Below are positions 24,835 to 36,956 of a DNA stretch of 64,000 nucleotides, piece by piece (position 1 is the first letter of the stretch; every line of letters starts with the position of its first letter). The position numbers and the translations under genes were made by a program. The stretch comes from an uncultured delta proteobacterium (GTDB lineage Bacteria; Myxococcota_A; Polyangia; Polyangiales; B10-G4): assembly GCA_963727445.1 (NCBI GenBank), contig CAVSGI010000006.1, positions 416,001 through 480,000 on the forward strand, read 5' to 3'. The notes beneath the pieces are model-generated. The model made no database searches and was not told the origin of the DNA. It saw only the letters and a program-made list of their open reading frames with translations.

Positions 24835-25442
24835 TCAGGTCCGGACCACGCCGTTCAGGCTGACCATGTAGGCGTCGCGGGCGCCGTCCTTCACGAAGCT
24901 CTGGACGGTGCGGGCGAGCGTCGCGCCGAGCAGACCGATCATCGGCAGGTGTTCGCCGCCTTCACACGTGGCTGAGTTCTGGGGGGCTGCTCGCCCCCTC
25001 CGGCCCCCTCGGCCTGCGTGTCCTCCCGGTCCGGCGTGAAGTCCTCGTCCCAGCGGACGAGACCGAAGCTGCCGTCGCCGCTGAGCGCAGCGTGGACGAG
25101 GGGGATGTCGGCGCCGCGGCAATAGTCGCTGGCGATCATCCGGCTGTCGTAGTTATCGAAGCAGTCGACGACCAGGTCGCTGCCCGCGAGCAGCTCATGG
25201 TCGTTGTCCTCGGTGAGGCGCACGCCGAAGGCTTCGCTCTTGATGCCCCAGAAGTTCGCGAGCTGAAGCTTCATCGCCTGCGCCTTGTTCTTGTTCAGGC
25301 TCTGCTTCACGAAGACCTGCGCGAGCAGGTTCTTGGACTCGACGCGATCGAAGTCGACGAGCCGCAGCTCCGCGCCGAGCGAGCGGCACAGAACCACGGA
25401 CGTCGACCCGAGCGCGCCGATCCCGACAAAGGTGATGCGCAT
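24835..25442 (-). CDS. ThiF/MoeB/E1-like adenylyltransferase (frameshift near 24972)
   Basis: MRITFVGIGALGS (GxGxxG), VDFDRVESKNL, KNKA, DLVVDCFDNYDSR; the tail ATCEGGEHLP in the adjacent frame carries the candidate catalytic Cys. ATG overlaps the upstream TGA. Confidence 0.85.
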
Positions 25443-26017
25443 CAGGACTCCTGGGGGCCGGGAGCACACTCCCGGCTTCGGGCCGCTGCGCTCCCGGTCC
25501 CGCGCCGCACCGCTGCGCGGTGCTCTGCGGGCCCGTCCGCTCCGCGTCCCGAAGCCTTCTGCGCACGGCCGGGAGCGCACTCCCGGCTTCGGGCCGCTGC
25601 GCTCCCGGTCCCGCGCCGCACCGCTGCGCGGTGCTCTGCGGGCCCGTCCGCTCCGCGTCCCGAAGCCTTCTGCGCACGGCCAGGAGCGCACTCCCGGCTT
25701 CGGGCCGCTGCGCTCCCGGTCCCGCGCCGCACCGCTGCGCGGTGCTCTGCGGGCCCGTCCGCTCCGCGTCCCGAAGCCTTCTGCGCACGGCCGAAGGGCA
25801 CCTTGGGACGCAGATAGATTCGGCCGTGGCCGAAGCGGTCGATCACGTAGTGGTCGAACGCGCCCTCGTGGAGGTTCGCGATGTGGAGGCCCGGCAGGCC
25901 CCCCGAGCGGACGAGCTCCACCGCGATGCGGCGGATCTCGCGATCGCCCATGTGTGGCTCGATCGCGCGCGGGTAATCCACGCTCATGCCGTTGTAGGTG
26001 ATGTTGAGGATGGCCAT
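25442..26017 (-). CDS. Ubiquitin-like protein: 76-aa core ending RPKVPFG plus a repeat-derived C-terminal tail
   Basis: ATG at 26017 after AAGGAGG; core is beta-beta-helix-beta like and ends at Gly76 (25790-25792); lies between JAB and E1 genes with TGATG coupling at both ends. Confidence 0.7.
   Translation of the reverse strand: MAILNITYNGMSVDYPRAIEPHMGDREIRRIAVELVRSGGLPGLHIANLHEGAFDHYVIDRFGHGRIYLRPKVPFGRAQKASGRGADGPAEHRAAVRRGTGSAAARSRECAPGRAQKASGRGADGPAEHRAAVRRGTGSAAARSRECAPGRAQKASGRGADGPAEHRAAVRRGTGSAAARSRECAPGPQES
25456..25793. repeat. Tandem 3 x 111-bp GC-rich repeat, in frame within the Ubl gene
   Basis: Units start at 25456, 25567 and 25678, nearly identical, bounded by GGCCG; internal hairpin GCACCGC-TGC-GCGGTGC. 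Confidence 0.95.
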
Positions 26018-26436
26018 CAGTCGCCTCCTTCCCTCTTCGTGGAGCGTCGCGCACCTGACGCGAGCCGCATTAGATCGGCCCACCAGGGCTCGTCGTCCCC
26101 TTCGAGGATGCGCTCCTCGCGTGCGGGCTCCTCGCCCGCCTCGCCGGGAGGTCCGTAACTTCTAACCACGACCTCGGCCGGCGCTACCACCGAAAAGCGG
26201 ATCGGCCGCGCCAGGGCCGTGACCAGCGCCGCCATGGTGGTCTCGTCTTCCTGCGAAAACGCCGCCGGTCCACGCGGATGACTGTGCGCGATCTCGACAA
26301 GCGTCTCGCGCCGCGACCAGATGGCGTCCCAGCGGGCCCGCGAGTCGGGGAGGGCGCTCGGGTCGTCCGATGCATCGGACCACGCGATCACCTCCCCCTC
26401 GCAGATCAGGAGGCAGACCTCGCGAGCCTCGCTCAT
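26017..26436 (-). CDS. JAB/MPN+ (Mov34) metallopeptidase
   Basis: N-terminal Glu (AREVCLLI) and HSHPRGPAAFSQED = HxH-x7-S-x2-D. Confidence 0.88.
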   Translation of the reverse strand: MSEAREVCLLICEGEVIAWSDASDDPSALPDSRARWDAIWSRRETLVEIAHSHPRGPAAFSQEDETTMAALVTALARPIRFSVVAPAEVVVRSYGPPGEAGEEPAREERILEGDDEPWWADLMRLASGARRSTKREGGD

Positions 26437-29400
26437 CGACGGCGGCGTCGCAGGGCGAGCGCGGCGAACACCACGAGGGCCGCGAACGGTCCGCCGACGG
26501 GAAGGCCACCGCCGGTCGTCTCGCAGCCGCAGCCCCCGCCGGTCACCATGCCGGGCGGGCCCGGATCGGTGCCCCCGTCTCCGCCGCCGCCGTCACCGCC
26601 ATCGGTCCCTCCGTCGGGACGGGGCGGCATCGGGCAGTCGAGAGGCTCGGCCTCGGTGGTCGGTGCGCCGCCGTTCGACAGCGGCGTCTCGTAGTTGCCG
26701 GTGTTGCGGTTGTCGTGCCGGAACTCCGGCCAGGGCTGCGCGGAGTCCGCGGGCGCGTCGGTGTTCCAGGCGAAGAGGTAGCCGTCGCGGGTGGTGATGA
26801 CGATCTCCACGAGGTCGTCGCCGTCGATGTCGGCCGCCGCGACCGAGCCGGTGATCCAGCCGCCGGTGAACTTCGGAAATCCGTCGGCTTCCTCTCCGCA
26901 CGCGTCCCAGGCATGCACCCAGTAGCCCGCCGAGCCGCTGACCAGCTCGGGGTAGGGGTCGGCGTCCACGTTCATCACCGTCGGATTCACGAAGAAGAGG
27001 TAGTCCTCGATCGCGCGGGGGAAGCCGGGGAGTTGGTTGCCGGTCTGCGTCTCCCAGGCGCCGACCTGGTGGGTGAAGGGCTCGTTGGAGTAGCCGCCCG
27101 CGAGGTTGAGGCCGAGGCGAAGCCCGGCGCCCCCCGTCACGAACTCGGGTCGGCCATCCTGATCGAGGTCGCCGAAGGAGCCCGCGGCGAACGTGTTGAG
27201 CAGGGGCTTGTCGAAGGAGTCGATGACGTCGCTCGAGTAGCCGCGGTCGTTCGAATCGAGGATCAGGATCGGCATGCCGTCGAAGCCGCTGTCGCGTGGA
27301 GGCTGGATGCCGTCCCAGATGAAGATGCTGCCGGCCTGACCGGCCGCGGCGACGTCGGGCCTTCCGTCTGCGTTCACGTCGGCCATGGCGATCGGGGAGG
27401 TGATCCCCTCACCGATGAAGGGATAGAAGTTGATGCTCGCGATGGTGATGGGCCAGTTGTCGTGCTCGGGCCCGCCCTCGTGGAGGTTTCCATCGCCGTG
27501 GATCAGGTGCACCGCGCCGCTGTTGTTGTCGTCGCCCACCTCGTTCGAGCCGACCGCGATGTCCACGATGCCGTCACCGTCCGCGTCGCCCACAGCCGCG
27601 GGCGTCACGATGCGGCTGACCTGCGCGTCCGCGGGATCCATCCAGAGCTGCGGAGCGATGATCTCGACGGGGAAGCCCGGCTGCGTCGTTCCGTCGCCCC
27701 GGAACGCGTAGACGTGGCCGTCATAGGCGGGGAGCACGATCTCGAGGAGGTCGTCCCCGTCGAGGTCGACGAGTGTCGCCGCCGCGAGGGTGCCGCGCTC
27801 GATGGGGGAGTCGGGGTTCATCGGGCCCATGCGGAGCGGGTCGCCGCTGGGGATCTCGGGGAGCGCGATGGGGAAGCCGGCCACCGGCGTTCCATCGGTC
27901 CCGTGGAAGGCGTGCAGGTCACCCTCGGTCGACGACAGGACGATCTCCAGCGTTCCGTCGCCGTCGAGGTCGCCGATAGCGGGCGCGTTCAGGATGATCG
28001 AGGGGTGCAGGTCGTCGGTGGGGATGGCGCCGGTCGCGTAGGCGGGCGAGCCCAGCACGTTGTAGGGCTCCGCCGCGTCGAAGCCGCGGAGCGTGCCGAG
28101 GGCGATCGGGAAGCCCGGGACCTCGGTCGCATCGGCGTTGAAGGCGTGGAGCAATCCGTCGGCGTCGGCGTAGATGATCTCCGCCATGCCGTCGTTGTCG
28201 ACGTCGGCCAGCTTCGCCGAGCTCTCGCCGCTCGCGGCCGGGTACTCGTCGACGTCGTTGCGCACGCCGAGGGGGATGGGGAAGCCGGGCAGAAGGTCGG
28301 GGTCGCTGTGGATGTTGAAGACGCGCCGGGACTCGCCGAGGACGTCGCCCAGCGGTGCGGGATAGTGCGCCGTGACGCGAATGCGCACGGTCACCGTGTA
28401 GCGGTTGTGGATGCCCTCGGCGTCGCCGTTGTCGATCTCGACCGCGCTCACGTCCCAGCTGGCGAGCTCTCCGTCGATGGCGGCGGTCTCGTCCGCGCCC
28501 ATGGCGAGTGTCTCCCAGTCGCCTTCCTCGGGCTCGACGCCGCGCGCCCATTCGATCACGTAGTCGAAGCTCGGCGCGCGTCGCGCGTCCAGGTGGCCGC
28601 GGATCGACACCGTGGGCTCGGTGTCCGGATAGACCACGCGGAACCAGTCGGGGTAGACGATGTCGACTTCGGGCGGGATCGCCCCGTCACGCACCGCCTC
28701 GACGGCGTTGAAGGTGTTGACGCGGCCGTAGCCGAAGCGCTGATCCCAGCCGGGCCGGCTCGGGTACCAGCGCCGGTCGAGGACCGCGCCGCCCGGACGG
28801 CTCTCGGGAACGTCGATGTCCATCGCCGTCATCAACAGGAGCTGCCGCGCCTCTTCGGCGGAGAGCGGCGGATCGAGGGGGCCGCCGGGACGGTCGGCCG
28901 CGATGGCCGACGAGTAGAGGATGCCGGCCACGCCGGAGGTGACGCCGGTCGCTTCCGAAGAGCAACCGGTTCCGGGGGCGCTCAGGACGAGCTGGCCGCC
29001 GTAGTTCGTGCAGTTGTTGAAGGCGAGGTAGCTGTCGGCGTTCTGGGGATTGCCGCCGGCGTAGGTGATCGCGTGGACGTAGAGGGTGTGGTTGGAGGTG
29101 CCGGGGTAGTTGTGGTGATAGCTGTTCTCGTCCGCGGCGCTGGCGACCACCAACACGTCGTTTTCGTAGGCGTAGTCGAGCGCGCGGCGCATGAAGGTGG
29201 TGTTGTTGAGGCTGCCCAGCGCCTCCTGGATGACGCGCGCGCCCGAGTCCACCGCGAACACCACGCTCTGACCGAAGTCCTGGGCGTCGACGATGAAGCT
29301 GTCGCCGGTGCGCACCATCAGGAGGCGGCAGTTGGGGCACTGGCCGATGTCGCCGCCGTCGTTCCCCGATGCCGTGCTGTCCTTACCCTCGCCGGTCCCG

Positions 29401-30158
29401 TGACCGTAGCGGTTGTCGTCCTGTGGGTCGTTGTCGTCAGCGTAGGTGTCCCAGCCGGAGATGTCGTCGACGTAGCCGTTGCCGTCGTCGTCGACCCCAT
29501 CGCTGCACAGGGTGATCAGGTCGCCCGGATCCGCGATGCCGTTCATGTTGCCGGCGCCGTCGAGGGCGGCGCTGAGCGCATCGCGGCTGGCCGCGTCCCT
29601 GCCGACGAACCAGTCGTTCATCGAGAGGTACCCGTCGCCGTCGAGATCGATGCGGTCGCCCATGTGCCCCGGCTGCGGGTCGGGGAGGCAGTTCGGGTCG
29701 AGGCCGCGCGCCTCGAGCTCGGCCTGGTTGATGTAGAACTGGTTGGTCAGGTCGCGCTCGTCCCACTTGATGCCGCTGTCGAGGACGGCGATGACCACCG
29801 AGCGCTCGCCGGTCGTGTACTGCCAGGCCATGTCGCTCCAGGTGCCGCTCCCCATCGCGACCTCGTCGTCACGGAAGCTGTCGCGCGCCGTGGCGGCCGG
29901 CGGGGCCCAGGACCAGTAGTTCCATGCGCCGCCGCTGGCGCGGCTCCAACAGACGCTGCCGCCGGTGCAGGTCTCTCCGTCGCCCTCGATGTCGTAGCCA
30001 TAGGCGTGATCGTCGGGCCAGTTGGCGGGGTCCTGCATGTCCGCTGGCGTCGAGCCCGTGGGCGGCGGCCAGGCCGGGTTCTGGGCGTCGACCTCGGGGG
30101 CGAGCCAGGCTGTGAAAGACGCCACAAGGCCGAAGAAGAGCAGGTGTCGCGGGCGCAT
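26433..30158 (-). CDS. S8 (subtilisin-like) serine peptidase with FG-GAP/VCBS repeats and MYXO-CTERM-type anchor
   Basis: Signal peptide; VIAVLDSG (Asp), YGHGT (His), TGCSSEAT (Ser region); many DxDGDG repeats; C-terminal GGCGC...TM...RRRRR. Confidence 0.85.
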   Translation of the reverse strand: MRPRHLLFFGLVASFTAWLAPEVDAQNPAWPPPTGSTPADMQDPANWPDDHAYGYDIEGDGETCTGGSVCWSRASGGAWNYWSWAPPAATARDSFRDDEVAMGSGTWSDMAWQYTTGERSVVIAVLDSGIKWDERDLTNQFYINQAELEARGLDPNCLPDPQPGHMGDRIDLDGDGYLSMNDWFVGRDAASRDALSAALDGAGNMNGIADPGDLITLCSDGVDDDGNGYVDDISGWDTYADDNDPQDDNRYGHGTGEGKDSTASGNDGGDIGQCPNCRLLMVRTGDSFIVDAQDFGQSVVFAVDSGARVIQEALGSLNNTTFMRRALDYAYENDVLVVASAADENSYHHNYPGTSNHTLYVHAITYAGGNPQNADSYLAFNNCTNYGGQLVLSAPGTGCSSEATGVTSGVAGILYSSAIAADRPGGPLDPPLSAEEARQLLLMTAMDIDVPESRPGGAVLDRRWYPSRPGWDQRFGYGRVNTFNAVEAVRDGAIPPEVDIVYPDWFRVVYPDTEPTVSIRGHLDARRAPSFDYVIEWARGVEPEEGDWETLAMGADETAAIDGELASWDVSAVEIDNGDAEGIHNRYTVTVRIRVTAHYPAPLGDVLGESRRVFNIHSDPDLLPGFPIPLGVRNDVDEYPAASGESSAKLADVDNDGMAEIIYADADGLLHAFNADATEVPGFPIALGTLRGFDAAEPYNVLGSPAYATGAIPTDDLHPSIILNAPAIGDLDGDGTLEIVLSSTEGDLHAFHGTDGTPVAGFPIALPEIPSGDPLRMGPMNPDSPIERGTLAAATLVDLDGDDLLEIVLPAYDGHVYAFRGDGTTQPGFPVEIIAPQLWMDPADAQVSRIVTPAAVGDADGDGIVDIAVGSNEVGDDNNSGAVHLIHGDGNLHEGGPEHDNWPITIASINFYPFIGEGITSPIAMADVNADGRPDVAAAGQAGSIFIWDGIQPPRDSGFDGMPILILDSNDRGYSSDVIDSFDKPLLNTFAAGSFGDLDQDGRPEFVTGGAGLRLGLNLAGGYSNEPFTHQVGAWETQTGNQLPGFPRAIEDYLFFVNPTVMNVDADPYPELVSGSAGYWVHAWDACGEEADGFPKFTGGWITGSVAAADIDGDDLVEIVITTRDGYLFAWNTDAPADSAQPWPEFRHDNRNTGNYETPLSNGGAPTTEAEPLDCPMPPRPDGGTDGGDGGGGDGGTDPGPPGMVTGGGCGCETTGGGLPVGGPFAALVVFAALALRRRRR

Positions 30159-30231: not shown

Positions 30232-31176
30232 TCAGCGCCGCGTGATGACCAGAAGGCCGGTATCCACCGCTTCGCGGATGACCGCGGGGAGGCTCTCGAG
30301 GGTGAGCTCCTCATCGTGACCGGACAAACAAATCCCGGCGTCGTAGACGTGCAACGAGCGCTGGTCCACCACCGTGATGAAGCGCTCCCCGAGGAAGCGG
30401 AAGGTGACCTCGAGCAGCGCGCCGGATTGACGACGCGTCGCGAGCAGCGTCGCGCCCACCGCGGAGAGCGCCGCCTCGGCCAGCGCCTCGGGCGCGCCCT
30501 CGCGGACGCGCGTGCGCCATGCCGCCCGCCGCCGCTCCGCCTCGGCCATGGCCTTTTCGCGCTGACGCTCACGGGCCCGTGCCTGCCGTTCCTCGGCCAA
30601 ACGTCGCAGCACCTCCTCGGCGACGGCGCCGCCGCGGCGCGCGACGTCGATGGCCGAGGTGCGCACCTCGGAGAAGGACACGGGGATCCCGAGGCGGCGG
30701 GACACGCGATTCAGAAGCGCGAAGCCGTACGCGAAGCGCAGGGAAGGGCCCACGCCTTTGAGCGCGTCGAGGCCGCGCTCCTCCTCGAGCGCGAGGCGTG
30801 CCTCCATCTCCGCGTCCCCGTCGAAGTCGAAGCCTCCGAAGAGCACCTCACCGTCGTGCCACCTGCGGCCAATCACGATCGACAGCGGCTCCGGCTCGTC
30901 CTCGGGCACGAGATGCAAGCGCACGCTCTCGTCGCCGGCGAGGAAGAGCCAGCCGTCCATGTAGTGTCCGCGCACCTTGGGGCGCTCCTCGAGCGACTCG
31001 GGCGCGTCCACCGCTTCGAGGGCGCGAGCCTTCCGCCCCTCGACCTCGAAGCGGTGCCAGCCGGCGGTCGCCTCTCCCTCGAGTCTGAGCCGCCGGCCTT
31101 CCGCCGACACGATGGTGCCGCCGAGATACGGCAGCACCATCGACTGCTTCTTGCCGAGGAGCTTCTCGTAGTCCAC
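30232..31176 (-). CDS. Hypothetical protein with candidate E2/UBC-like C-terminal domain
   Basis: C-terminal part of ORF 30232..32994 from GTG 31176. Its single Cys lies in HVYDAGICLSGHDEELTLESLPAVIRE, resembling the E2 G-x-IC-L...LTL active site. Confidence 0.6.
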   Translation of the reverse strand: MDYEKLLGKKQSMVLPYLGGTIVSAEGRRLRLEGEATAGWHRFEVEGRKARALEAVDAPESLEERPKVRGHYMDGWLFLAGDESVRLHLVPEDEPEPLSIVIGRRWHDGEVLFGGFDFDGDAEMEARLALEEERGLDALKGVGPSLRFAYGFALLNRVSRRLGIPVSFSEVRTSAIDVARRGGAVAEEVLRRLAEERQARARERQREKAMAEAERRRAAWRTRVREGAPEALAEAALSAVGATLLATRRQSGALLEVTFRFLGERFITVVDQRSLHVYDAGICLSGHDEELTLESLPAVIREAVDTGLLVITRR

Positions 31177-31244: not shown

Positions 31245-32994
31245 CTAGCTCTCGACCCCGACGAGCTTGGTCTTCATGACCTTTTCGACGAGGCCGAAGG
31301 CCGGGGCGCCCGTGAGGGTCGGGGCTTCGAGGAGCGCCGACAGGACGCGCGGGACCTGGTACGGGTCGTCGAAGTGCTCGATGCCGATGGTGCTGAAGGG
31401 CACGGCGAGCTCGCGCGCGAGCTGCTGCACCGTCTCGCCGCGGCTCCAGGCGACGTTGAGGATCAGCGCCAGCGCCGCGGGGTGATAGCCGCAGTCGTTG
31501 AAGACCGACGCCAGGGTGCGCCCGTGCTCGCCGGCCTCGTCGCCGACGACAATCACGATCAGCGGCTCGGCCCGCGGCAGGCGCACGCCTGACGAGTAGA
31601 GCGCGCGCACCGCGGCGCCGTGCACCGTGCCGCCTTCGGCCTTGATGCTGCCGAGCATGTGCTGAACCGCAGCGCGGTTCGGTGCCTTGGGCCGGTGCAC
31701 CCAGCCCATGGTGTCGAAGCTGGCGATGTGGAGTCGGTCCATCGGGAAGCCCGCGAGGATGCGGGACAACGCCTCGACCGACTTGTCGATGGCGCCCTGC
31801 ATCGAGCCCGAGCGATCGATGAGGAACATCACCTGGACCTTGGCGTCGGCGGTGGCCTCCTCGACGGCCTTCTCGACCGCGTGCTCCGCGGCCGACTCCA
31901 GCTTCTCGCGCACGGCGTCGCTCTGAACGTTCTTCGCGATGTTGAGCGCGCGCTGGTCGGTGGCGCTCTCCACGGCCTTTTCCCAGGCCGCATAGACCTC
32001 CGGCTCGGCCATCAGGCCGAGCTCCTCGAGGGTCGGCGTGAGCTGACGAAGGTCGCGATCCGAGAGGGACGGAAGGAGCGTGACCATGATGGCCGGCGTG
32101 AGCCCCACGTCCTTCGGAAGACGACCCACCGCCTGCTTGTAGCTGAGCCCCTGGGTGACGATGGCCTCGCAGAATCTCGGCCTCCGACAGGCCGTCGAAG
32201 CGCTCGCTCTTCTCGAGCTCGAGGCCGTCGAGGCCCAGCTCGCGGTGGCCGCCCGCCGCCTGCTTCTGCTTCCAGCCGAGGATCGCGAAGAAGCGCTCGG
32301 CCTGAGGCTTGTAGCCGACCTTGCGAGCGATCTTCTTGATCGTCTCCTTGTAGCCCGCGCGCACCAGGCCGGCGAGCATCGGCTCGTTCTTCTCGCGCAT
32401 CTCGAGCCAACGCGTCGCCGCCTTCGGCCAGCGCCCGAGGGGCGGCTTGGTGCCGCCCGGATCGGCGAATCCCGCCGCGCGGTTGAGCGTGGCGATGCTC
32501 TCGGCCTCGAGGAGCTCTGCCACGCGCAGCACCGCCTTCGGGGTGAGCATGCGCGTCGACTTCTTCTCGTAGTGAAGGAGCATCGACTCGCCCACCAGGC
32601 GGTAGTCGTCGTCGTGGAACGCGACGGATCCGTCGTCGTCCACGATCGGCTGGCCCGCGTGGGGCTGTACGAGCATCAGCGCGGCGCAAGCGACCTTGAG
32701 GTCGCGCCAATCGGTCTCGCTGAGCGCGTAGCTCGCGAAGCGCGCGGCGAGCTCGTGGTTGAGCTCGTAGAGCTCGATGAGCTTGCCGTAGAGGCGCTCG
32801 GCAGCCGGGACGTGGAGACCCGGATCGACCGGCCTGCCGCGGACGCGGTTTCCCTTGCGCGGATGCCAGACGCCGCCGACGTCCACACCCGGACGGTTGT
32901 GCCAGAGGTGCGCCGAGGAGTTCAGGACCAGATCGAGCAGCCGCTCGGCCGGACCCATCTGCTCACGCGGGAGGGGCGTGGTGTTCTCCGTCAT
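31245..32994 (-). CDS. Ro60/TROVE(ROT)-like helical protein with C-terminal vWA domain (frameshift near 32172)
   Basis: About 580 aa after joining frames; vWA MIDAS FLIDRSGSMQG, GGT, IVVGDE. The Ro-like call is inferred from size, architecture and the adjacent Y-RNA-like genes. Confidence 0.7.
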
Positions 32995-33016: not shown

Positions 33017-33051
33017 AAAAGAAGAAGGCCGGCGCCTTGGAGGCGCCGGCC
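33017..33051 (-). terminator. Intrinsic terminator/attenuator-like hairpin between the ncRNAs and the vWA gene
   Basis: Minus strand GGCCGGCGCC-TCCAA-GGCGCCGGCC followed by TTCTTCTTTT. Confidence 0.65.
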
Positions 33052-33098: not shown

Positions 33099-33247
33099 GT
33101 GCGGCCGAGTGGCGAAGCCACGAGGGTTATTAACCCCGGATCTAGAGTCCGGTGCTCTACCACTGAGCTACAAATCACTTGCGGTGATTGGACTGGATTC
33201 GAACCAGCGACAACGTTTGCGTGTAGGGCTACGCCTGCTGGCCGCAC
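33099..33247 (-). ncRNA. YrlA-like Y RNA: circularly permuted tRNA mimic
   Basis: Terminal stem GUGCGGCC/GGCCGCAC; T arm GCUGG-UUCGAAU-CCAGU precedes a loop-closed acceptor stem, then D arm GCUC-AGUGGUA-GAGC and hairpin CCGGA-CUCUAGA-UCCGG. Confidence 0.85.
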
Positions 33248-33328: not shown

Positions 33329-33428
33329 AACACGTCCGAGTGAGGAAGCCGCAATGCCGACTGATTAGGTCGGTGCCCCATCCGGGGCACCTTGCTTTGC
33401 GTGTAGGGCCTCGTCGATTGGTCGTGTC
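33329..33428 (-). ncRNA. Second Y-RNA-like ncRNA
   Basis: Terminal stem ACACG..CC/GG..CGUGU; shares GCCCUACACGCAAA and 3' GGCUUC..CACUCGG with the first RNA; two internal hairpins. Confidence 0.65.
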
Positions 33429-33502: not shown

Positions 33503-33530
33503 ATGATGTGTCGCGCCTCTCATGCGTCAA
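33503..33530 (-). promoter_or_regulatory. Possible sigma70-type promoter for the ncRNA/vWA operon
   Basis: Minus strand TTGACG-N16-CATCAT about 75 bp upstream of the second RNA; weak match. Confidence 0.3.
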
Positions 33531-35749: not shown

Positions 35750-36949
35750 CTAATCCCGGACCACGAAGCGTACGTCGCCTTCGTAGGTGAGCTCGCCGAG
35801 CTCGAGCTCCTCGAGCTTGTCGAGGACCTCGAGGCCCCGATAGCCGAAGGCCTGGGAGCGGGGATTGTCGATCTCCAGGACCTCTCCTTCGCGGGTGAGC
35901 AAACGGAATCGTCGCTGGTCGGGCCCGGCCTCGACCACGCCATCCACGCGCTCCACGTGTGGATAGCGGTAGCCGCCTCCGTGGGGAAGGAGATTGGCGC
36001 CCACGACGCGATCTTCGACGCCGTGCTCGTGCGCCCGCTCGAGGAAGCCCACCCGCTCGGCGATCTCCTCGGTGAAGTTCTTCTTCGGCTTCACCATGAA
36101 GATCGGATCGTCAGCCGAGATGGTGAGCGGATAGCGCGCCCCGCGCTCGATGTCGGCGTCGTCGAAGACGTAGCAGCCGAGGTGGCAGGCGTTGACCTCG
36201 GTCATCCCCTGATGGGTCGCGTTCTCGACCACGCTCCAGGCGTCGTCGAAGAGAGCCCGCGCGATCGCTTCACGTCGTCGCTCGTTCCAGTTCTGCACTT
36301 TCATGTAGCACTCGAAGAACCAGGCGGCGTCGTCTCCGGTGAGCGTGTGGAGCTTGCCCCAGGGCGTCTCGAAAATCCGCGCGCGCTTCCGGAGATCCTC
36401 CGACTTGTCGTAGTAGATGCCGACGCCGAAGGGGGACTGCACCCGGTGCTCGTGTCCGCTCGAGTGCATGACGAAGTACGCGGGCGCCGCCGGATCCTCA
36501 CCGATGCCCCGCTTGGTCTCGACCACGTCGAGGAAGTGATTGCCTTCGTGCAGGTCGTATTCGACGTGGATCCCTTCGAGCTCGATGCCGTCCTCGACGA
36601 GCTTGCGCGCCCGCGCCGCGACCTCTTCGCGGTCCGGAACCTCGGGCAGCGCGCCGACCAGCACGCCACAGCCGTTCGACTTGATGTCGAGCACCGCGAA
36701 GTCGCCGCTCCACTGGATGCGTCCGCCGTAGCCGAAGCCCTGGCCCCATCGGACCTCGTTCCGCGTCACGGTGGCGTCCGGCGCCCCTACGAAGGTGGCG
36801 TCGGGCGGCAGCCCCAGCTCCTTCTGTACGTGGTGGATCTTGGCGATGCCGTAGGGCATGTTGGCCGCGCAGAGCTGCTCCCCGACATCACCGATGCCGG
36901 CCAAGAAGCAGTGTTCGCGGGCTCTTTCGAGAAGCTCGTCGTCGCTCAT
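35750..36949 (-). CDS. Divergent RtcB-family RNA ligase
   Basis: RtcB motifs in order: APDA..GFGYG, SNGCG, EGNHFLD, VMHSSG, ATHQ, LPHGGG. Confidence 0.72.
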   Translation of the reverse strand: MSDDELLERAREHCFLAGIGDVGEQLCAANMPYGIAKIHHVQKELGLPPDATFVGAPDATVTRNEVRWGQGFGYGGRIQWSGDFAVLDIKSNGCGVLVGALPEVPDREEVAARARKLVEDGIELEGIHVEYDLHEGNHFLDVVETKRGIGEDPAAPAYFVMHSSGHEHRVQSPFGVGIYYDKSEDLRKRARIFETPWGKLHTLTGDDAAWFFECYMKVQNWNERRREAIARALFDDAWSVVENATHQGMTEVNACHLGCYVFDDADIERGARYPLTISADDPIFMVKPKKNFTEEIAERVGFLERAHEHGVEDRVVGANLLPHGGGYRYPHVERVDGVVEAGPDQRRFRLLTREGEVLEIDNPRSQAFGYRGLEVLDKLEELELGELTYEGDVRFVVRD

Positions 36950-36956
36950 GCCCGTC

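Follow-up and report, generated by a model that had tools for sequence, protein, structure and literature searches.

Conserved Y-RNA-like RNAs with tRNA-derived inserts, apparently part of an undescribed module with a divergent Ro60-like gene and a ubiquitin-like operon

Genes and RNA units at the locus

The window, as we call the whole 64,000-nucleotide stretch of DNA that was analysed, encodes on its minus strand two RNA units, a Ro60-like gene and an interrupted operon of candidate ubiquitin-like conjugation genes. Its features, from high to low coordinate, are as follows.

35750-36952, minus strand: RtcB-like protein of 400 residues, upstream of the RNA units
33503..33530, minus strand: putative sigma-70-like promoter, TTGACG-16-CATCAT (1 found, 0.1 expected in shuffles)
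33331..33426, minus strand: unit 1, with the same carrier as unit 2, a D-arm-like hairpin and an anticodon-like stem-loop, loop CU-AAU-CA
33099..33247, minus strand: unit 2, a Y-RNA-like carrier stem holding a permuted tRNA body in the order T-acceptor-D-anticodon
33247-33219 paired with 33121-33099, minus strand: carrier of unit 2, the long outer stem
33192..33208, minus strand: T arm of unit 2, GCUGG-UUCGAAU-CCAGU, from sequence, Rfam and parser
33171..33191, minus strand: loop-closed acceptor stem of unit 2, 7 positions, 6 paired
33153..33170, minus strand: U8-A9 linker and D arm of unit 2, G15:C48 Levitt pair possible
33136..33152, minus strand: anticodon arm of unit 2, 5 bp, loop CU-CUA-GA, triplet at 33145-33143
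33125-33135, minus strand: small hairpin of unit 2, 3' of the anticodon arm
33017..33051, minus strand: intrinsic-terminator-like hairpin (11 bp, 33051-33027) with a U tract, separating the RNAs from the Ro60-like gene
31245..32994, minus strand: divergent Ro60/Rsr-like gene (TROVE-like helical ring plus vWA), with a frameshift near 32170 in this assembly
30232..31176, minus strand: ORF2, with two OB-like domains, a long helix and a small alpha/beta domain; candidate E2-like carrier
26433-30158, minus strand: secreted subtilase with FG-GAP repeats, a 3.7-kb gene between ORF2 and JAB
26017..26436, minus strand: JAB-family peptidase, HSHP motif, Pfam Prok-JAB above cut-off
25790..26017, minus strand: candidate ubiquitin-like protein (Ubl) ending PKVPFG; its frame lacks a stop behind the Gly and continues through three ~120-nt repeats
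25432-25790, minus strand: three ~120-base tandem repeats after the Ubl gene
24835..25442, minus strand: ThiF/E1-like adenylyltransferase, Pfam ThiF above cut-off, with a frame change near 25000, before the conserved Cys motif
about 24975-25015, minus strand: short G/C-rich palindromic insert in E1, near its frame change

Re-reading the minus strand from 33247 to 33099 returned the 149 bases quoted in the first-pass annotation, and these fold as drawn there, with a minimum free energy of -56.7 kcal/mol, a z score of -3.0, and 1 of 200 shuffles equally good; with the outermost pair removed (147 nt), z is -2.05 and 6 of 200 shuffles are equally good. Model R1, whose training set includes the unit 2 sequence, gives unit 2 a score of 114 bits; unit 1 scores 52.4 bits (E 3e-9) and folds with z -3.2. 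The YrlA-like order of T arm, closed acceptor stem and D arm claimed in that annotation is present, with tRNA tertiary residues, according to both Rfam and the parser. The acceptor stem is loop-closed as claimed, and its extent had to be corrected to seven positions (six paired) with C73-C-G-C in the loop; compared with NCCA, positions 73-76 thus encode no CCA.

The suggested Infernal comparison with Rfam gave a divided answer. The tRNA model reaches 34.4 bits over the D-anticodon part, above its cut-off of 29, and the YrlA model (RF02553) gives 36 bits over the T arm, acceptor stem and D arm (T-AS-D), below its gathering cut-off of 69. Because 21 of 24 sub-threshold YrlA matches checked elsewhere are ordinary tandem tRNA genes, a weak YrlA score is uninformative alone, and the case rests on homologues. 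A pair of adjacent tRNA genes was considered as an explanation for unit 2 and rejected, since the outer halves are absent and ARAGORN calls no tRNA in the region. On the minus strand, the T arm (33188-33211) and D arm (33150-33171) match the same genome's tRNA-Pro(GGG) and tRNA-Thr(GGU) at 21/21 bases (E 0.002), an identity that may be a consensus effect or recent copying.

The vWA gene downstream of the RNA units had been taken for a gene of Ro type, and structural comparison bears this out. A predicted model of the homologue P0001 (pLDDT 93), which is 78% identical to the window protein over its first 274 residues, was searched with Foldseek; the first 11 rows are Ro60/TROVE structures matched over the full length, with E 3e-8 to 5e-6, TMq 0.32-0.43 and 12-16% identity. 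VIA-align superposes the model on Rsr (2nvo) with Z 12.6 over 425 aligned residues at rmsd 6.6, level with vWA-only matches. Pfam TROVE does not pick up the protein. On the predicted model, we regard the gene product as a divergent structural homologue of Ro60.

In the 96 loci for which 3 kb of downstream sequence is available, the genes that recur after the Ro60-like gene are ORF2 (92 loci), JAB (89), Ubl (76) and E1 (76). ORF2 has no match in Pfam, PADLOC, NCBIfam, PHROG or Atlas and no Foldseek match at E 0.001; structural matches are weak, to OB folds at its N-terminus and to UBC/RWD folds for its small C-terminal domain (Z 4.1-4.8). Within that small domain, ORF2 residues D279, G281 and C283 are invariant, the Cys occurring in 98 of 98 homologues. 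The PKVPFG ending is found in the 78 small-protein homologues listed, and the E1 Cys motif is kept in 66 of 66 homologues. The E1 is nearest to ThiF/MoeB families, with every score below those families' cut-offs, and a domain search reported no rhodanese domain in it.

The motifs of the protein at 35750-36952 presumably recall RtcB RNA ligase. It has no Pfam, NCBIfam or PDB sequence match, and of its 247 relatives none of the 120 listed has a Pfam domain; it possibly represents a divergent RtcB clade of Myxococcota. A link between this gene and the RNA arrays was rejected, as a search with the window's RtcB-like protein as query found it in 0 of 98 long-flank loci.

Homologous loci, the carrier stem and its inserts

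The Ro60-like gene has at least 815 relatives, the named ones from Myxococcota. Hyalangium versicolor (locus L082) is a cultured species that carries the system with intact genes. We compared 170 loci, comprising 10 from a 401-genome sample, the best 80 of 216 genome-contig matches and the best 80 of 169 metagenome-contig matches; the set includes some near duplicates, and related loci inflate every count. Arrays upstream of the Ro60-like gene contain one to nine RNA units, all framed by the same two strands. When 188 units were picked by two motifs with no pairing filter, the 13 top mutual-information column pairs fell into one register, a carrier stem spanning some 23 positions; its conserved internal loop, together with CUACACGC, makes up the conserved carrier motifs. 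A carrier profile trained on the 188 units finds 262 matches in the 170 loci, all of them sense and upstream of the Ro60-like gene, and none antisense or downstream. Among loci with 600 nt of upstream flank, 102 of 159 have carrier units and 57 have none detected, so the proteins may act without such RNAs or with unlinked ones. The window's own 9.5-Mb genome has exactly two carrier matches, both in the window. In a 60-sequence alignment 92% of cells pair, against 29-45% in slid registers, and compensatory change occurs at 32 of 38 pairs. As the parser required pairing in the T, D, anticodon and carrier stems, these figures are in part circular for them; for the acceptor stem they are not.

An Rfam YrlA search of 151 genomes returned nothing above cut-off, and no unit in five further loci reached the 69-bit gathering threshold. 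An RNA-first search of 151 genomes found matches in nine, including the window's. Of the other eight, two have them directly upstream of a Ro60-like gene, two inside the wider module, two in ordinary tRNA clusters, and two (L177/L198, L178/L199) with no module gene; L198 and L199 have carrier-like ends, yet no module gene lies within the 16-19 kb fetched. The L198 unit sits in a long tRNA array, and at L279 (genome G146) there are two tandem T-acceptor-D units lacking the described carrier.

The parser sorted 244 distinct units by insert class. Unit 2 topology, with an anticodon arm after the D arm (T-AS-D-AC), accounts for 71; T-AS-D for 60, D-AC-T for 22, D-x-T for 4, T-containing but unparsed inserts for 21, and others for 66. 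The long stem of unit 2 leaves at the variable-loop position, as had been described, both in its own fold and in these 71 units. Within the T-AS-D class, the strand after the D arm pairs with that before the variable loop in 47 of 54 units, the YrlA topology (control, 13 of 69). The carrier thus exits at the variable loop, anticodon or acceptor stem according to class, and classes are mixed within a single locus in 71 of 99 loci; some phage units appear, by eye, to have a fourth carrier entry, at the D loop. A YUAY motif precedes the tRNA domain in 144/244 units. The Ro-binding 5' motif of YrlA, GNCGAAN0-1G, occurs in 33/244 units and is absent from unit 2, and GNCGA occurs in 93/244.

Bare anticodon stem-loops make up 27 of the 66 other inserts (mean 1.2 and maximum 5 in 200 shuffles). 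Their triplets are natural ones in 33 of 35 loops, and 18 of 35 are identical to the 7-nt loop of one of the window genome's tRNAs. One insert reproduces 21 bases, with one mismatch, of what we take to be 23S helix 69 (score 18; 30 shuffle maxima at or below 15), and further rRNA-like pieces comprise two more helix-69 fragments and one loop that we take to be sarcin-ricin-like. Upstream arrays at L101, L107 and L148 have inserts or neighbours copying the helix 69 or sarcin-ricin-like loop. Elsewhere in the window's genome (L276; G000 contig C9, about 31500-32200, minus strand), an RNA of YrlA topology (45.9 bits) is followed by a helix 69 copy, upstream of what by eye is a Band-7/SPFH-like gene and at the end of a tRNA cluster.

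A distant version of the whole module is found on viral contigs of 340, 239, 37 and 390 kb (L267-L270; hhalign probability 100), and Ro60-like genes with RNA units occur on four more. Phage units include the T-AS-D-AC topology, for example with loop CUUUUAA (L215). The phage copies form a distant clade, and no Ro60-like protein of the Myxococcota type was found in viral contigs. Two viral contigs carry a single unit with a host-type carrier: L190 (3983-4117; loop CUCUUAA, triplet CUU), in a tRNA cluster, in a 75%-complete record in which no Ro60-like gene was found, and L193 (3983-4115; loop CUACGGA). Such lone units suggest that the host ring is being used or jammed. Of 86 arrays, 19 have a terminator immediately upstream, mostly about 33 bases past the stop of a short ORF (controls, 2 of 70 windows). 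The arrangement of short leader ORF and GGCCGCC/GGCGGCC terminator, found at L002, L018, L051, L116, L147, L150, L160, L165 and others, looks, from its sequence, like a translation-sensing attenuator; the window array has no such leader ORF and terminator.

The anticodon arm and its triplet

Removal of two misparsed units left 69 of the 71 in the T-AS-D-AC class. The canonical arm reported for unit 2 (5 bp and 7 nt, with U33 and CUA) is there, and the arm is kept across the family, with Y32 in 67 of 69 units, U33 in 63, R37 in 67, and A or C at position 38 in 64. The hairpin has compensatory changes at 5/5 pairs, in units picked for this pairing. The Levitt pair (A-U or G-C) is kept in 66/69, and the elbow residues are the most conserved. 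Acceptor positions pair in 66-69 of 69 units at seven positions and in 32 of 69 at the eighth, the stem measuring 7 bp in 67 of 71 units. CCA is encoded in 19 of 71 units (18/64, against 9.6 expected from position frequencies). That such an arm is not routine in YrlA, as had been supposed, agrees with its absence from the structure line of the Rfam model and with the accessible portion of 10.1101/312249, where YrlA is described with no anticodon loop and a variable acceptor stem; this comparison draws on the structure line and two papers.

The homologues that preserve pairing and loop shape leave the triplet free. Among the 69 units are 33 different triplets, and CUA occurs in three: the window, L061, and L023, a similar unit with the same YUCUAGA loop as unit 2. 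Counted as lineage-by-triplet cases, CUA accounts for 3 of 49, where position frequencies predict about 2.4. A U or C stands at position 34 in 53/69 units. Comparison of 98 pairs of close units in 11 clusters gives differences of 0.69, 0.50 and 0.45 at the three sites of the triplet and of 0 at U33; paired sites differ at 0.13, and the unpaired sites of the acceptor loop differ at 0.23-0.69. Triplets are exchanged on one body: UCU, AUA, CUU and GUU occur inside one cluster, and CUU and CUA are swapped between loci 96% identical in the Ro60-like gene. The discriminator base does not track the triplet (69 units), and natural triplets are not enriched in the class (52/62, 0.78 expected). Since the triplet varies like other unpaired sites and natural triplets are unenriched, drift explains its variation as well as diversification of a bait would. 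Judged by this pattern, selection appears to act on the shape of the loop and not on the amber triplet, and CUA in unit 2 appears incidental, a chance combination of letters. The special meaning once attached to CUA is thus unsupported, with 33 triplets in 69 homologues and CUA as frequent as chance predicts.

Permuted tRNA genes of algae and archaea place the 3' half before the 5' half, with a closed acceptor stem, and are processed to working, identity-matched tRNAs. In the present family, by comparison, the triplet is free and a putative protein-binding stem is attached, and the anticodon is not conserved and matched to acceptor identity as in a functional tRNA, permuted or otherwise. Such genes are mentioned, as known from algae and archaea, in the accessible portion of 10.1101/312249. 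It is very improbable that unit 2 reads amber codons, through RNase P cutting its 7-bp acceptor stem, addition of CCA, and charging of a two-piece CUA tRNA that reads or blocks UAG. The canonical arm with U33 and G37 would suit such a role, as would the 7-bp acceptor stem seen class-wide and the precedent of Mycobacterium smegmatis YrlA, which has a 7-bp stem, is cleaved by RNase P and receives CCA according to the part of PMC4201824 available. Opposed to this are the presence of CUA in only 3 of 69 units, the triplet swaps on one body, a discriminator base independent of the triplet, the lack of an encoded CCA in unit 2, and a presumably protein-bound stem of about 23 bp at the variable loop that should hinder ribosome entry. 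Amber decoding was rejected on the 33 triplets, the chance-level frequency of CUA and the swaps. Mimicry of an A-site tRNA at UAG is unlikely, the triplet varying on an otherwise unchanged tRNA body, as is a precursor of a permuted suppressor tRNA, since a working tRNA would not tolerate triplet swaps on one body.

Related systems and possible function

Comparisons with known systems draw on the accessible portions of the sources cited. The units resemble Y RNAs in general in the long stem that results from pairing of the 5' and 3' ends and in the adjoining Ro60 homologue on the same strand. YrlA (RF02553), found with Rsr/Ro60, is alike in the order of T arm, closed acceptor stem and D arm and in its tRNA tertiary residues (PMC4201824, 10.1101/312249), and also in the YUAY motif, the same-strand position upstream of a Ro60-fold gene, and the presence of several RNAs per locus. 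Unlike YrlA, in which the Ro-binding stem prolongs the anticodon stem, unit 2 keeps a full anticodon arm and its carrier exits at the variable loop, and the acceptor stem of the T-AS-D-AC family is fixed at 7 bp where that of YrlA is variable. The family here also has another carrier consensus, scores below the Rfam cut-off, and is linked to a protein that escapes Pfam TROVE; its neighbours are Ubl, E1, JAB and Cys-protein genes, whereas those of YrlA are rtcBA. Deinococcus Yrn1 is a Y RNA likewise modelled with an anticodon-like arm on a 5-bp stem, but it has a 6-nt loop, no clear D arm, and the arm between D-like and T arms, and so resembles the D-AC-T class here, not unit 2 (PMC4201824). 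The b7a-tRNA, placed beside Band-7 and RtcB, is likewise a tRNA-like RNA predicted within an RNA-damage locus, with Rsr as an occasional neighbour, but it is said to resemble authentic tRNA, a comparison made by description only (10.1101/312249).

The operon shares with Bil/Bub operons (10.1101/2024.11.21.623953) and the Ubl-E1-E2-JAB operons of Iyer 2006 (PMC1779556) separate genes for a candidate Ubl, E1 and JAB, a putative E2, the lack of an E3 and a patchy distribution. It differs from them in a short, adenylation-only E1 with its own Cys motif, in the OB-like domains of ORF2, and in having a Ro60-like protein and an RNA array as fixed partners. Neither vWA nor TROVE occurs in Iyer 2006 (PMC1779556), and the accessible text of the Bub paper (10.1101/2024.11.21.623953) mentions tRNA once, concerning insertion sites. 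No description of the RNA or module appears in the accessible portions of PMC7824862, PMC7159879, PMC7790460, PMC1779556 or 10.1101/2024.11.21.623953, and a 2026 preprint on three further tRNA mimics deals, in its accessible part, with other families. A full-text literature search found no paper on the RNA or the module; the survey of Burroughs and Aravind 2016 lay outside its scope and may describe parts. The RNA structure is real and conserved, a putative variant of Y RNA inside an apparently undescribed module.

A role as decoy or sensor, proposed in the first-pass annotation, is plausible for this Y-RNA-like tRNA mimic. In the form we favour, whose chances we put at about even, the Y RNA displays tRNA surfaces as bait to proteins that bind or cut tRNA, and the cassette tags these proteins; the window's copy may be decaying. 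The proposal builds on the observed structure, linkage and insert repertoire. Expression would begin with co-transcription of units 1 and 2 from the promoter at 33530, followed by their separation at pyrimidine-rich spacers; no RNA sequencing run is listed for the region, which speaks neither for nor against expression. Covariation shows that each unit folds as a carrier of about 23 bp with a tRNA-derived insert; in unit 2 the carrier replaces the variable loop, so that the elbow, anticodon loop and 7-bp acceptor stem stay exposed. That the Ro60-like ring binds the carrier is suggested by the fold of the protein, by the constant linkage and by what is known of Y RNAs. Its targets, presumably anticodon nucleases, other translation-targeting toxins or tRNA-binding factors, would engage the displayed arm, where the shape of the U-turn loop should matter and the triplet, in the T-AS-D-AC class, hardly. 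For conjugation, JAB would trim, and E1 would activate the Gly-ended small protein and pass it to Cys283 of ORF2; joining of the tag to the captured protein or to the ring would then neutralise the attacker or report the attack. RNA and Ro60-like ring together would form a substrate receptor for which the RNA is the bait. Several observations count against the bait reading: Salmonella YrlA is not cut by the nuclease studied in PMC7790460, according to the part available; the UBC/RWD matches of ORF2 are weak; the Ro-binding motif of YrlA is rare among the units and absent from unit 2; 57 of 159 loci have no detected unit; and drift accounts equally well for the varying triplets.

A broader version of the bait proposal is tentative, and we lean against it. 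It envisages a Ro60 ring with swappable RNAs that show every surface of the translation machinery targeted by toxins, from the anticodon loop, elbow and acceptor end of tRNA to helix 69 of 23S rRNA and the sarcin-ricin loop; the attackers would be captured and tagged via E1 and the E2-like protein. In bacteria the system would be aimed at toxins of phages or competitors, in large phages at the anticodon nucleases of the host, with translation stalling switching it on via the leader-peptide attenuator.

We consider it rather unlikely that the system is instead one of classical Rsr-Y RNA quality control, with the ring tethered through the tRNA elbow to a repair enzyme or nuclease, an anticodon arm that is structural filler dating from an origin in paired tRNAs, and a Ubl cassette whose sole task is to regulate the ring. 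Such a role is known for Rsr and Y RNA with PNPase, and an origin of YrlA from tRNA dimers has been proposed (both in the accessible portion of 10.1101/312249). Conservation strongest at the elbow, a triplet that behaves as a free site, and the partly kept CCA (19/71), which fits descent from tRNA genes, all agree with it, and the OB-like domains of ORF2, weak matches as they are, could bind RNA. However, inserts without an elbow, bearing faithful anticodon or rRNA loops, would be useless to an elbow tether; U33 and R37 are kept; and no RtcB-like gene lies near the 98 long-flank loci when the window's RtcB-like protein, not canonical RtcB, is the query. Less probable still is a sulfur relay of the ThiS/ThiF or Urm1-like kind that modifies tRNA or these RNAs, the Y RNAs positioning substrates or sensing modification. 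The ThiF/MoeB affinity of the E1 (all scores below cut-offs) and the U or C at position 34 in 53/69 units would fit, and sulfur-transfer operons with JAB, Ubl and E1 exist (PMC1779556, accessible portion). On the other side, no rhodanese domain was reported in the E1, the operon gene order as read contains no conserved desulfurase or thiouridylase gene, and the invariant cysteines found in both E1 and ORF2 are what a thioester relay to protein would need.

It is a real possibility, somewhat short of an even chance and compatible with the other readings, that the family is functional and the window's copy is decaying, its CUA and AAU triplets being products of drift. The Ro60-like frame, intact in 153 of 155 loci, is broken near 32170 in the window; the E1 has a frame change, the Ubl has lost its stop, and the operon is split by the 3.7-kb subtilase gene, which was not found in other loci of the sample. 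The triplets of both window units (CUA, AAU) occur in no tRNA of the genome, compared with rates of 2/35 and 10/62 in their classes. Yet all the RNA stems still pair, L023 shares the loop of unit 2, and other loci also have insertions inside the operon. As 2 of 33 other gene regions (35.6 kb) in this assembly have frameshifts, the window's frame changes may be sequencing errors, and decay is possible as well.

What is new here is the topology tally, the triplet test, the fixed 7-bp acceptor stem, the inserts derived from rRNA loops and the leader that resembles an attenuator. The amber anticodon, which first drew attention to the RNA, proved irrelevant. For the purpose of the tRNA-like domain of bacterial Y RNAs, the variety of inserts provides natural controls: a single carrier bears tRNA joined at differing positions, bare anticodon loops or loops of rRNA. 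Through its covalent product, the neighbouring tagging cassette should reveal the partner. If the bait reading is true, the module would be an RNA-programmed substrate receptor for ubiquitin-like conjugation, and would add a new layer to the fight between bacteria and phages over tRNA.
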